Source: Candidatus Thorarchaeota archaeon
Lineage (GTDB): Archaea; Asgardarchaeota; Thorarchaeia; Thorarchaeales; Thorarchaeaceae
Assembly (NCBI GenBank): GCA_003345555.1
Contig: PRDJ01000076.1
Span: forward strand, 1 to 23,907
Direction of reading: 5' to 3'
DNA length: 23,907 nucleotides
The position numbers and the translations under genes were made by a program. Under the pieces are notes generated by a model. That model was not told the origin of the DNA and did not search any database. It worked only from the letters and a program-made list of their open reading frames with translations. The stretch's first letter is position 1; every line of letters begins with the position of its first letter. Positions 5,766 through 21,609 of this stretch are shown in pieces.

Positions 5766-6002
5766 ACGAAAATTCCCGTCGACTCGCCCGCTGGAAATCT
5801 GAGTGGATCCATAGAAGTCTTCGCCAATCTCGGTTCTGCGTTTGTTCCCCGATTCACTGACCGGAATTCCAACTGTATAATTGTCGACTAGGATATGTTC
5901 GTGCTGCCACGAGTTGAGAGATTCTCGAAAACATTCGCCAAGGGAGATTGGACACTTCCAGAAGACACCGAAGTAATCGTGCGAGGTAATCCACATGGTT
6001 GA
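5766..6002 (+). pseudogene. Cryptic ~78-codon ORF with ACG at the putative start and one in-frame TAG (5889-5891); pseudogene, recoded gene or chance ORF
   Basis: AGGAGG at 5751-5756, 9 nt spacer, then ACG AAA ATT CCC...: (M)KIPVDSPAGNLSGSIEVFANLGSAFVPRFTDRNSNCIIVD*DMFVLPRVERFSKTFAKGDWTLPEDTEVIVRGNPHG*. Ends with an 8-nt ATGGTTGA overlap onto the next gene. No family recognised. Confidence 0.25.
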
Positions 6003-6204
6003 AAGCAAGAAGAAGAAAGTGAAAGCCAAGCCCAAGACTAAGGCCAAGTCTAAGGCCAAGACTGCAACTAAAGCCAAGACCAAGACTAGGGCCAAGTCTA
6101 AGGCCAAGACTGCAACTAAGGCCAAGACCAAGGCCAAGACTACGACTAAAGCCAAGACTAAGACCAAGGCTAAGACAAAGGCCAAGACCAAAGCTAAGAA
6201 GTGA
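5995..6204 (+). CDS. Small, extremely basic Lys/Ala/Thr-rich protein (histone H1 C-terminal tail / Hc2-like), putative nucleic-acid-condensing protein
   Basis: 69 aa: 31 Lys, 1 Arg, 14 Ala, 15 Thr, a single acidic residue. GAGGT SD upstream. Synonymous variation between repeat units (ACT/ACC/ACA/ACG, AAA/AAG, GCC/GCT/GCA) indicates protein-level selection. Confidence 0.7.
   Translation: MVESKKKKVKAKPKTKAKSKAKTATKAKTKTRAKSKAKTATKAKTKAKTTTKAKTKTKAKTKAKTKAKK
6040..6135 (+). repeat. Two tandem 48-bp (16-codon) units plus shorter AAGGCCAAGAC-type repeats within the Lys-rich gene
   Basis: KAKSKAKTATKAKTKT (6040-6087) and RAKSKAKTATKAKTKA (6088-6135) are near-identical at the DNA level. Confidence 0.85.
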
Positions 6205-6475: not shown

Positions 6476-6883
6476 ATGGTCGGTAAGATCTATGTAATCA
6501 GCTGCAATCAAGACTTAGTCAAAATGGGTGTGGACCGAGTCAGAACGGCTGTCAATGGTTTAGAGGAAACGCCCATCTCACTCGACTGGTCGAATGCACG
6601 GTTGGTGCCAGTAATCGCCAATGAGAGAGTAGCATATCAAGCAGGAGAAACGAAGATTACAGGTATCAAGCCGATATCGGTCCCGGCTTACCACATGGTT
6701 GTCCAGTCGTTCTATGGCTCCAATGGCATGGGACACCTCTTCTGCATAGGTGCACCTGAGTTCAAACCATTTTATGAAGGACGAGTCGCCAGCGTCGCAA
6801 TGTTCCAGTCAAGAATCAAGTCATCGGTCTTAATCGGAGACCTCCTTGGTCAAGTCATCGTGGTACCCGGGAAGAAGAGATGA
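6476..6883 (+). CDS. DUF22-like archaeal beta-rich protein
   Basis: Pattern VIANERV...GETKITGIKPISVP...GHLFCIG...FYEGRV...AMF...IGDLLGQV resembles archaeal DUF22 domains (recognised from memory, not searched). Confidence 0.5.
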   Translation: MVGKIYVISCNQDLVKMGVDRVRTAVNGLEETPISLDWSNARLVPVIANERVAYQAGETKITGIKPISVPAYHMVVQSFYGSNGMGHLFCIGAPEFKPFYEGRVASVAMFQSRIKSSVLIGDLLGQVIVVPGKKR

Positions 6884-6924: not shown

Positions 6925-7224
6925 TTAGAGGGAAATCATTCTGTCATACCCGTCCATGATTAGGTCGACCATCTCAGAGTAGCTAACTAGGTCAACACCC
7001 GGAATGAGTCGATCACTGATGCCCCGTTCCATGACATGTATACGAGATACGTGGACAGGAACACCTAGTTTCTGAATGCCTTTAGAGACAGGGTTGCCCT
7101 TGTCGGCTTGGAATACTCCATCCTGTACTAGGAGAAGCCCAGTTTCTATCCGCTGCTTCTTCAGCCCCTCAACGATTTCGTTTAGACTTGAGCAATCACC
7201 CGACAGCCAGATGAGTACCTTCGT
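6925..7224 (-). CDS. dsrH: DsrH/TusB family sulfur-relay protein; not in the ORF track, apparent ACG start
   Basis: My translation: (M)KVLIWLSGDCSSLNEIVEGLKKQRIETGLLLVQDGVFQADKGNPVSKGIQKLGVPVHVSRIHVMERGISDRLIPGVDLVSYSEMVDLIMDGYDRMISL*, 99 aa, TAA at 6927-6925. Has the DsrH hallmarks LLLxQDGV and ERGI...L...V..VSY.EMVDLI. Third gene after dsrE-dsrF. No in-frame ATG/GTG/TTG before codon ~65. Confidence 0.85.
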   Translation of the reverse strand, partial: TKVLIWLSGDCSSLNEIVEGLKKQRIETGLLLVQDGVFQADKGNPVSKGIQKLGVPVHVSRIHVMERGISDRLIPGVDLVSYSEMVDLIMDGYDRMISL

Positions 7225-7239
7225 TGTTTTCTCCTCCTT

Positions 7240-7590
7240 TCAGAAAGTCAGAACAACCTCGTTCTCACTCAGCAACGCACCTATACCTTCAGCGTCCACT
7301 AAGTCCACTCCCTCTAAGATATCCTCGCGCGTGATACTTCTCTCATCCATAGACCTCTTGCTTGCACATATGCGGCCCCCGAAACCCTTGTACGTTGACT
7401 TGAACATCCGAATGGGTTTGTCATCCATCGTTTTCATCAGTGAATAAACCCCGTCACCCAAGAAAAGAAGTGTAGGTTGATGATCCATTCCATACATACC
7501 CACGGCCGCTCGCCAGCCCTCAAAACTCGTAATCTTGCCAAAGGGCTTGCTTCGCACTACTATCAGCACCTTTCGTTCTTTGAATTGCAC
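7240..7590 (-). CDS. dsrF: DsrF/TusC family protein
   Basis: VLIVVRSKPFG...EGWRAA...LLFLGDGVYSL...SMDERSI...DLV...LLSENEVVLTF. GTG start 8 nt after AGGAGG. Confidence 0.85.
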   Translation of the reverse strand: MQFKERKVLIVVRSKPFGKITSFEGWRAAVGMYGMDHQPTLLFLGDGVYSLMKTMDDKPIRMFKSTYKGFGGRICASKRSMDERSITREDILEGVDLVDAEGIGALLSENEVVLTF

Positions 7591-7602: not shown

Positions 7603-7968
7603 CTAGATCGTGAACGTGACAAACCTGTCACACTGACCGACAATCTCTCCGAACTCGGTAAGACCAGACACGGTCACCCCTTGGACAAAGTCACTGCCAT
7701 CCTGAGCGAACCCTCGGGCTGAAGTGCAGAGACCACAGGCTTGGAACTCTACGCCTGCGTCGGCGAGCTCTTGGAACATCTGATTCATTGGTCGCTCAGG
7801 GTCCGGATCCTGATTGAGCTTAGCGTTATTTACCCCATCTATGAATAGAAAGACCTTTACCTTGTGCCCCTTGAAAATAGCGGCCTTTGCAAGCTCGTAC
7901 AGAGTACGGCTGTTCTCAAAAGTGTAGGGTCCTGTTTCAAGTAAGAAGCCAAGGATTCTGCTTTCCAC
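7603..7968 (-). CDS. dsrE: DsrE/TusD family sulfurtransferase
   Basis: GPYTFEN...AKAAIFKGHKVKVFLFIDGVNNA...VEFQACGLCTSARG, including the conserved persulfide-carrying Cys region. First gene of a three-gene operon. Confidence 0.88.
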   Translation of the reverse strand: MESRILGFLLETGPYTFENSRTLYELAKAAIFKGHKVKVFLFIDGVNNAKLNQDPDPERPMNQMFQELADAGVEFQACGLCTSARGFAQDGSDFVQGVTVSGLTEFGEIVGQCDRFVTFTI

Positions 7969-8084: not shown

Positions 8085-9155
8085 ATGACCAAGACAATCA
8101 TATCATACCACACGAAAGACGGCGCGGCGCGGCAGGCTGAATTTGAAGAAAATACCACATCCTTCGATTTGAGCCGACTGGGGGCCATGGACATTGATCT
8201 AGGCCCAATATCCGAGACCGCCAATCTAGAGGAACTTCTGCTAGCCTCGAACAAGCTGAAGACCGTCAGTCTGACACCCTTGGCCAACTGCTCCAGCCTC
8301 CAAGTGCTTAGTCTTCTGAAGAACCGTCTGCAGGATCTCAGTCTCAAGGGGCTTGAGGGTTGTACCGCACTTAGGGAACTCAATCTTGGCGGCAATGAAC
8401 TCAAGAGGATTGACTTGGGTCCACTTGGAAAGTGCATGAGTCTTGAACGACTTAGATTGTTCGGCAACCAGATTGAGAAACTAGACCTGAAGCCATTGTC
8501 GAAATGCACGAACCTTCAGTACCTAGAACTCGAAACAAATCACCTAGAGAAAATCGACTTGGGCCCACTACGAGAGTGTCGCAACCTCGTACAATTGAAC
8601 TTGATGTACAATTCACTCACCGAGATTAACCTCGGACCGCTGAAGGCTTGCAGCAGACTGAAGTTCCTCTATGTGCAGCACAATGCCTTGAGCACTCTGG
8701 ACCTGAGCCCGTTGGAGAGCTGCAAGGATCTTACTATTCTCAGACTTGGAAACAATGACATCAAGTCAATAGATTTGGACCCGATGTCCAAATGCTTAGG
8801 TCTCAGACGACTTGAACTCGCAATGAACAATCTCCAGTCGCTCGATCTCACCCCGCTTTCGAACTGTACGGAACTCAGAGGACTGGACATAGCAGGGAAC
8901 CTACTGACATCGATAGATCTGTCACCTCTATCTGAATGCGAAGCTCTTGAGGAACTCTATCTCTTCTCTGACCATCCTCACGAGAATCAGTTTGCTGAAC
9001 TGGACCTGACACCTCTCTTCTCATGCAAGAACCTTGAAGACATAGGTTTGCCTGAAACAGTAGACTTGACGGCCGAATCATCGGTGAAAGGGCGAAAGGA
9101 TATTCCTTCGGCTCTCAGAGAACTTATTGACGAAGAAAGAATCAGCTGGGTCTGA
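8085..9155 (+). CDS. Leucine-rich repeat protein (11 x 24-aa repeats, consensus LxxLxLxxNxLxxIDLxPLxxCxx)
   Basis: Ten regular 24-aa repeats from residue 48, an 11th with a 5-aa insertion (SDHPHEN), and short caps. No signal peptide or TM segment seen. Confidence 0.92.
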   Translation: MTKTIISYHTKDGAARQAEFEENTTSFDLSRLGAMDIDLGPISETANLEELLLASNKLKTVSLTPLANCSSLQVLSLLKNRLQDLSLKGLEGCTALRELNLGGNELKRIDLGPLGKCMSLERLRLFGNQIEKLDLKPLSKCTNLQYLELETNHLEKIDLGPLRECRNLVQLNLMYNSLTEINLGPLKACSRLKFLYVQHNALSTLDLSPLESCKDLTILRLGNNDIKSIDLDPMSKCLGLRRLELAMNNLQSLDLTPLSNCTELRGLDIAGNLLTSIDLSPLSECEALEELYLFSDHPHENQFAELDLTPLFSCKNLEDIGLPETVDLTAESSVKGRKDIPSALRELIDEERISWV

Positions 9156-21102: not shown

Positions 21103-21609
21103 CTATCTGTTTTTCCTAATTAGGCTTCTATCTGCGAGGCTCTGGCTATTCCGCAGTTGAAGTAGATGCTGGTATTGCCAGTCTCTCTCTCTTGCTATTG
21201 CAGCATCGGCATCAGAGGAGTTGGTGGCTCTATGAATAGCCTGTAAGGCATAATTCGCAGCACCAATAGAATGAGTGCGAACATGTGCAGTTGCCACCGC
21301 TTGACCTGCGGCACGGGCGGCAGAGCGAGCCGCATTATCTTGTCCTACCTCACGAGCAGCCGCATGAGCATCAAGTGCAGCTTTGCGCACGTCTGCCATC
21401 TTGAATATCCCAGTATGTATCCATTTTCGGAGTGCTTCAATGGCTTTCCGGGGGCGGTGGTCTTCTGGATATTTCTCTTCGAAGTATGGCATGACACGCT
21501 CGACACAATCAACCGCCCAGACGGCTAACGTCCTAGGGTCAGTTTTTCTCACAAGGTCTACAATTGACTCGTCTTTGTGTGTAACTGAGAATCCTGTTTT
21601 TTCTCCCGT
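21103..21609 (-). CDS. Imm5-like putative immunity protein; start at GTG 21552 (track) or ACG 21609 (proposed)
   Basis: LAVWAVDCVERV...YPEDHRPRKAIEA...W...AHAAAR...AARAAGQAVATAH...HSIGAANYA matches a widespread family. The frame is open a further 23 codons upstream of 21552. Confidence 0.7.
   Translation of the reverse strand, partial: TGEKTGFSVTHKDESIVDLVRKTDPRTLAVWAVDCVERVMPYFEEKYPEDHRPRKAIEALRKWIHTGIFKMADVRKAALDAHAAAREVGQDNAARSAARAAGQAVATAHVRTHSIGAANYALQAIHRATNSSDADAAIARERDWQYQHLLQLRNSQSLADRSLIRKNR

Follow-up and report, generated by a model that had tools for sequence, protein, structure and literature searches.

The third gene of a dsrE-dsrF-dsrH cluster in a Thorarchaeota genome raises the question of how its translation begins, since its reading frame opens behind a strong Shine-Dalgarno (SD) sequence with ACG, a codon absent from the start codons of NCBI table 11. 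The window analyzed here is the whole of the 23.9-kb contig C76 of the metagenome-assembled genome (MAG) G000 (2.28 Mb, 93% complete), in which the cluster is laid out as follows.

7603..7968, minus strand: dsrE/tusD-like gene, 121 aa, GTG start as listed.
7240..7590, minus strand: dsrF/tusC-like gene, 116 aa, GTG start at 7590, TGA stop at 7242-7240.
7233..7238, minus strand: Shine-Dalgarno AGGAGG of dsrH, 1 nt past the dsrF stop and 8 nt before ACG.
7222..7224, minus strand: ACG, the inferred dsrH start codon, aligned with ATG/GTG/TTG/CTG in 70 other loci.
6925..7224, minus strand: dsrH/tusB-like CDS, 99 aa plus TAA (6927-6925).

An earlier note on this DNA described a full-length DsrH-like frame following dsrF in the same reading frame and apparently initiated at ACG, and every element of that description is correct to the base. 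The dsrF gene ends in TTC TGA, with the in-frame TGA sitting five codons upstream of the dsrH ACG. When read on the minus strand, AGGAGG (7238-7233) does lie 8 nt before ACG 7224, separated from it by the spacer AGAAAACA (7232-7225), and this spacing is identical to that of dsrF, where AGGAGG (7604-7599) precedes GTG 7590 by 8 nt; genome-wide, the GGAGG-to-start spacing of G000 has its peak at 7-8 nt. No ATG, GTG or TTG is found in frame from the dsrF TGA to codon 65 of the dsrH frame, as the note had put it: the sole canonical in-frame start is ATG 7032, 64 codons past the ACG, which would yield a product of just 35 aa. In the public annotation, the dsrH product (P0002) is a 95-aa protein begun at ATC 7212.

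The two upstream genes are recognizable members of their families. The dsrE-like product matches Pfam DsrE (PF02635) at 2.4e-26 and TIGR03012 at 4.1e-16, the latter under its cut-off, and contains an ACGLC cysteine motif; the dsrF-like product matches Pfam DsrE/DsrF at 4.4e-10 and TIGR03010 at 5.3e-12, again under the cut-off of that model. The gene order dsrE-dsrF-dsrH is also found in relatives. The operon is flanked on one side by a DUF22 gene (window 6476-6883, plus strand), which is kept beside dsrH on the contigs of relatives, and on the other by a gene for a 356-aa leucine-rich-repeat protein (window 8085-9155, plus strand). Farther along, a 69-aa ORF (window 5995-6204, plus strand) encodes a Lys/Ala/Thr low-complexity repeat (KAKTKAK...) and has long Leu/Ala-rich ORFs antisense to it.

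Read from the ACG, dsrH has the properties of a real and full-length gene. The 99-aa product matches Pfam DsrH (PF04077) at 1.4e-10, scoring 41.7 bits where the cut-off is 24.4, while it reaches 44.4 bits with the NCBIfam equivalog-domain model TIGR03011, under the cut-off of 49.2; the protein is therefore a member of the DsrH/TusB family but not a certified TusB equivalog. The first 40 codons from the ACG have a dicodon coding score of 0.35, which is typical for genuine genes of G000; these average 0.44, against -0.99 off frame. A profile built from 13 orthologues found the PDB chains of TusB (2d1p_C, 1.4e-9) and DsrH (2hy5_C, 2.8e-7), and residue 19 of the query falls on residue 19 of 2hy5_C, so that the N-terminal length counted from the ACG equals that of the solved DsrH. 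In an AF2 model with a pLDDT of 96, strand beta1 comprises residues 2-7 (KVLIWL), directly after the ACG codon, in agreement with the proposal of the note that MKVLIWL forms a natural N-terminal strand; over its full length, the model was matched by Foldseek to 2hy5_C (E 3.3e-7, TM 0.77) and 2d1p_C (TM 0.82/0.85). All 17 residues that are invariant in the orthologue alignment are present. On these grounds we consider it probable, if not assured, that the minus-strand frame 7224..6925 functions as a dsrH/tusB-like gene and makes up the third cistron in a dsrE-dsrF-dsrH sulfur-relay operon. DsrEFH and TusBCD are heterohexamers, and Cys11 of DsrH, which is nearly invariant among orthologues, together with the ACGLC motif of DsrE, would be compatible with persulfide sulfur relay in an alpha2-beta2-gamma2 complex.

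The position of the start was examined by comparison of 71 dsrH loci, drawn from 65 Thorarchaeota-family species genomes and from metagenome and ENA/Logan contigs. The orthologue N-termini, M/V/L-K-x-L-I-W-L-S, align gap-free, and the column occupied by ACG in G000 holds ATG in 39 loci (38, plus one shifted by one codon), GTG in 17, TTG in 13 (12, plus one shifted by one codon) and CTG in one (the ENA contig L024), while ACG is found in G000 alone. An SD-like motif precedes dsrH in 68 of the 71 loci, most often at 8 nt. The four nearest relatives (76-80% amino acid identity) have GTG, ATG, ATG and CTG, and the dsrH start codon is thus evolutionarily labile. Since only one of 71 loci has ACG, it represents a T-to-C change of an ATG that is private to G000; for the same reason, selection is not demonstrably keeping the ACG. 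The suggestion that ACG tunes the E:F:H stoichiometry finds no support in this alignment, as orthologues swap ATG, GTG, TTG and CTG at the position and G000 alone has ACG. The CTG-started orthologue (L024:339-620, contig k141_2527670, 76% identity) has a public dsrH call of 93 aa that starts at a downstream TTG and is truncated like that of G000. A metagenome scan for close relatives returned only three loci, none of them from G000's own species.

This alignment also bears on the location of the start within the frame. Initiation could in principle occur at another nearby non-canonical codon, ATC 7212, AAG 7221 or CTG 7206; the database protein P0002 begins at the ATC, and NCBI table 11 admits both ATC and CTG as starts, which in E. 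coli give 1-2% of the activity of AUG (10.1101/063800). However, 20 nt separate the ATC from the SD instead of the 7-8 nt at which spacing peaks in the genome, use of this codon would cost half of strand beta1 in the AF2 model, and the starts of the orthologues fall exactly on the ACG column, making a start at any of these three codons decidedly improbable. Very little credence is likewise given to read-through of the dsrF UGA, by which the note had envisaged a DsrF-KEEKTT-DsrH fusion. The dsrF stop is indeed in frame with dsrH in G000, 15 nt upstream, but the distance between dsrF stop and dsrH start ranges from 10 to 16 nt over the 71 loci (16 nt in the nearest relative) and preserves the frame in just 15 of them, under the third expected at random, and TGA is the commonest stop of G000 long ORFs (530 of 1182). 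On this comparison, the in-frame dsrF stop is an accident of G000, and a fusion would not be a conserved arrangement.

A different concern is that the change at the start was a private and recent mutation that silenced, or nearly silenced, dsrH, whose frame would be intact merely for want of time to decay. The uniqueness of the ACG among the 71 loci fits this account, a recent loss of the dsrH start would look identical, E. coli initiates very poorly at ACG (10.1101/063800), and G000, at 2.28 Mb, is smaller than most of its relatives (~3 Mb). Arguing against it, the invariant residues are all retained, in its identity to the nearest relative (78-80%) DsrH sits at the genome median (80%), and dsrE and dsrF, whose products would act together with DsrH in a heterohexamer, are intact. 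Further evidence on this point, as well as on the possibility of a sequencing error, comes from the occurrence of ACG at the starts of other genes.

Such genes were sought with a dicodon model trained on G000, which was used to find coding-like segments that precede the first canonical start and overlap no other gene. The dsrH gene ranks fifth of 98 in this screen, and several further orphan segments display an SD followed by ACG at the expected start of the protein. In all, ACG is observed at the homology-defined starts of about ten other genes in G000 and two sister species, among them the following.

C6:26334: FAD-linked oxidase, AGGAGG-8nt-ACG in G000; relatives have TTG, ATG, GTG, ATG.
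C39:51756: DHDPS-Fae fusion, GGAGG-ACG, 6 nt past the stop of the upstream gene; 15 relatives have ATG or GTG.
C52:22793: IscU-like protein, ACG in G000 and G002; ATG in G003.
C66:1927: GNAT, ACG in G000 and G003; ATG in four others.
Window 21103..21609, minus strand: Imm5-like protein, 168 aa, ACG with GAGG 7 nt upstream; G003 has ATG.
C22:27475: 252-aa protein, ACG right after an in-frame TAG in G000; relatives have ATG.

Conversely, at C3:309242 it is the sister species G003 that has AGGAGG-8nt-ACG, and G000 has ATG there. In the IscU-like protein, position 1 of the Pfam NifU_N profile falls on the ACG residue, and the Imm5-like protein, the second ACG candidate on C76, matches Pfam Imm5_like at 2.3e-43. 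For a few of the ACG starts a possible canonical alternative exists, 6-19 codons downstream or 8 codons upstream: the Imm5-like gene has a canonical codon 19 codons downstream that is a possible alternative start, and the GNAT case is weakened by an in-frame GTG in G003, 8 codons upstream and lacking an SD. Three candidates were discarded. The Gfo/Idh/MocA gene is not an ACG start at C77:20108, as relatives have TTG one codon upstream and the G000 start is the CTG at C77:20105, and PCNA (C50:34136) and a Leu-rich ORF (C41:67677) proved to be false candidates. Translational coupling was also dismissed as a requirement, as merely 4 of 10 ACG sites are located within 25 nt of the stop of an upstream coding ORF.

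Other non-canonical codons were encountered at candidate starts. A PPAT-like cytidylyltransferase (G000 C41:16210, plus strand; L090-L094) has no canonical start in six genomes, the aligned codons being ACG, GCG, TCG, TCG, CTG and CTG, each two codons past an in-frame stop that belongs to an upstream ORF lying in the same frame; with GCG and TCG two bases removed from ATG, reinitiation, read-through or a later start have to be considered for this gene. Candidate CTG starts of G000 were noted at C77:20105, C36:110090, C36:67738, C50:14546, C10:60953 and C66:17586, including those of a Gfo/Idh/MocA oxidoreductase, an ABC ATPase and an ArsR-like regulator, and the first three sites were compared with orthologues. 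An ATC start candidate was observed in an archaeal DnaG-like primase gene (C18:11739). Among GGAGG-led starts of G000 long ORFs, ~51% are ATG, 28% TTG and 22% GTG.

To place these cases against a background, 1.5 Mb of the sister species G003 was compared with G000 (1,248 ORF pairs, median identity 80%). A start column was defined by an SD-like motif 5-10 nt upstream in both genomes, by ATG, GTG or TTG in at least one of them and by a location within 40 codons of the upstream stop, and a non-canonical column was counted if no canonical alternative occurred between the upstream stop and 8 codons downstream. These SD-anchored columns took the place of a comparison anchored on the ends of BLAST HSPs, which classified 336 of the 1248 pairs and was noisy. 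In 266 columns, both genomes are canonical, and 10 are non-canonical on one side without an alternative. Six of these ten hold ACG, of which five belong to G000 and one, C3:309242, to G003; the rest are AGA, ATA, GCG and TGG, one each. Inside genes, ACG makes up 1.6% of the non-canonical partners of ATG, GTG and TTG, and its excess at starts is significant (P=3e-9; 1e-7 without dsrH), also when measured against the partners of ATG only, where ACG accounts for 6.2% (P=4.5e-5; 4.6e-4 without dsrH). Internal ATG codons are replaced by ATA (2.6%), CTG (2.1%), ATC (1.8%), ATT (1.3%) and ACG (1.0%), and unlike these internal replacements, the start columns are almost devoid of ATA, CTG, ATC and ATT. 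A simpler census of GGAGG followed after 5-10 nt by a given codon was less telling: without coding filters ACG (10) is within noise, and with filters ACG (3) is just ahead of the other non-canonical codons (at most 2), which is weak evidence alone.

The genome-wide count of SD-ACG against other codons for which the note had called thus reveals an excess at SD-anchored columns. The note had taken a private mutation to be indicated by close orthologues with ATG in a genome showing no such excess; the close orthologues do have ATG, GTG or CTG, as this account expects, whereas the excess is present. As four-fold sites between the two genomes are near saturation, a frequency of ~2% ACG at starts means both that ACG is tolerated far above other codons and that it is selected against relative to ATG, GTG and TTG. 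ACG starts are nearly all species-specific, which fits a codon that is weak, mildly deleterious and tolerated, not one that is preferred. The same data speak against the silencing of dsrH: the same change is seen in the IscU-like, FAD-oxidase, DHDPS-Fae and other genes, which are unlikely all to be dying, and ACG is enriched at starts above every other non-canonical codon. We therefore regard silencing as unlikely, though it deserves to be taken seriously.

The comparison likewise addresses whether the ACG is an error of sequencing, assembly or consensus, or a minority allele in the MAG, in an organism that has ATG. The observation does consist of a one-base difference in a metagenome-assembled genome of which no second assembly of the species is on record, the protein cluster having one member on one contig. 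Substitutions between T and C relative to the sister genome are symmetric, however, both genome-wide (T>C 5399 and C>T 5588 at four-fold sites, G000/G003) and at internal ATG codons (ATG-to-ACG 1.03% and 1.07% in the two directions), so that no T-to-C artefact is apparent in G000. Several more starts of G000 are ACG, and independently assembled relatives have ACG starts of their own (GNAT and C3:309242 in G003, IscU in G002). An error is accordingly rated as improbable.

A further instance of non-canonical initiation, in a gene connected with start selection itself, was recognized at the following location.

G000 C57:100298-100510, minus strand: aIF1/SUI1 gene, CTG start.

In G000, G001 and G003, AGGAG lies 8-9 nt before this CTG, and every canonical start comes only after the codons for the zinc knuckle ICPNCG; G001 additionally has an in-frame stop two codons ahead of the CTG. 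Comparison of G000 with 31 family loci (L185-L188, L242-L271) revealed no ATG at the aIF1 start position in any of the 32: about 19 have GTG and some 11-13 have CTG without a canonical alternative, often with a stop just upstream. Judged from these alignments, near-cognate initiation is used by the essential gene aIF1 in this family. The homologous eukaryotic factor eIF1 rejects near-cognate starts (PMC6412873, PMC7531240), and the weak start of aIF1 is a candidate for autoregulation of stringency, by analogy with the poor context of eIF1 and the AUU of infC. The tolerance of ACG may be causally linked to aIF1. Among the 29 tRNAs that Rfam detects in G000, an incomplete set, none is initiator-like with a CGU anticodon; tRNA-Thr(CGU) and the sole tRNA-Met(CAU) detected have G1-C72 and belong to the ordinary elongator class. 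Rfam did not recover the initiator tRNA from the G000 assembly, and pattern searches for it yielded no tRNA-like sequence.

These starts also help in weighing C-to-U editing of the mRNA, which would restore AUG. Editing of ACG to AUG creates starts in plant organelles, and a recurrence of ACG specifically would fit such a process. To our knowledge, no C-to-U editing of mRNA is known in archaea. An SD at initiation distance is common to the ACG sites, which points instead to the ribosome, and the recurrent CTG starts, as in aIF1, are not explained by C-to-U conversion at the second base, leaving editing as barely credible.

The observations at dsrH and beyond, namely its anatomy, the homology of its start position, the recurrence of ACG with its statistics and the intact fold, lead us to favor, with somewhat better than even confidence, genuine SD-directed initiation at the dsrH ACG, tolerated as a weak start. 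Among the alternatives offered by the note, it is the best supported, given the homologous position, the optimal SD and a recurrence above the background spectrum, while the stoichiometric role attached to it has found no support. We propose a model whereby an ancestral ATG of dsrH became ACG through a T-to-C transition and translation would still begin at this codon. The strong AGGAGG behind the dsrF stop would set the small subunit, or the terminating ribosome, with ACG in the P site, and initiator Met-tRNA would read the codon despite the mismatch at the middle base, giving a Met-Lys-Val-Leu-Ile-Trp N-terminus; the predicted N-terminal peptide is (M)KVLIWLSGDCSSLNEIVEGLK. Initiation by ribosomes at the ACG itself, Met as the first residue and the efficiency of the process are inferred; compared with ATG, ACG would probably be the weaker start, and one that the lineage tolerates. 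The dsrH ACG most likely exemplifies a tolerance of near-cognate codons that extends across the lineage, rather than a device for setting DsrEFH stoichiometry.

A broader reading, which we advance tentatively and hold at somewhat less than even odds, is that ACG, together with CUG, serves as a lineage-wide weak start in Thorarchaeota, read by initiator Met-tRNA on mRNAs with an SD, with stringency kept low through a stringency-sensing aIF1 that is itself started by CUG or GUG. If so, the family would possess an archaeal counterpart of eIF1 autoregulation, and eukaryote-style near-cognate initiation would be older than eukaryotes. Should ACG initiate in Asgard archaea, the nearest archaeal kin of eukaryotes, the weak-start aIF1 would be a candidate stringency sensor, making the evolution of start fidelity directly testable, and start selection in these archaea would resemble the eukaryotic near-cognate set (ACG, CUG) rather than that of bacteria (AUU, AUC, AUA). 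There are practical consequences as well. On the same condition, such starts fall outside what standard gene callers and NCBI table 11 can represent, and as a result genes are truncated or missed and metabolic reconstructions from MAGs under-call; dsrH provides an example, being annotated as 95 aa from ATC or else lost as a 35-aa stub. Weak starts within operons could also set subunit ratios, although there is no sign of this for DsrEFH.

We found no published description of ACG starts in archaea, and a 2020 review of archaeal initiation gives AUG, GUG and UUG alone as starts (PMC7531240). In ribosome profiling of H. volcanii, ~30% of putative alternative starts were near-cognate and were left aside (PMC7261190). 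When all 64 codons were assayed in E. coli, ACG fell into the class with 0.1-1% of AUG, below AUA, AUC, AUU and CUG, and ACG starts gave mostly Met and some Thr at the N-terminus (10.1101/063800).

The operon itself has its closest known counterparts in A. vinosum DsrEFH (2HY5) and E. coli TusBCD (2D1P), with which G000 shares the E-F-H order of the three genes and the DsrE-like alpha/beta fold of the third subunit (DsrH of 2HY5 and TusB of 2D1P, TM 0.77-0.85 over the full length), whereas sequence identity is only 21-26% and NCBIfam equivalog scores are under the cut-offs. As for the start, in eukaryotes and viruses ACG and CUG are read by Met-tRNAi, with eIF1 setting the stringency and autoregulating through the poor context of its own start. 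The codons recurring in Thorarchaeota are the same two; archaeal aIF1, aIF1A and aIF2 are eukaryote-type factors, and the aIF1 start is weak, GTG or CTG, in all 32 family loci. The two differ in how the start would be located, by an SD at 7-9 nt in polycistronic mRNA in Thorarchaeota, as deduced from sequence, and by scanning and Kozak context in eukaryotes. Bacterial rare starts (AUU of infC; AUA, AUC, CUG) are SD-directed and one base off AUG, as proposed for Thorarchaeota, and the AUU of infC, a weak start on a fidelity factor, parallels the CTG of Thorarchaeota aIF1. In contrast to E. coli, where ACG ranks below AUA, AUC, AUU and CUG, the starts of G000 and G003 show ACG most often among non-canonical codons, and ATA, ATC and ATT are nearly absent.
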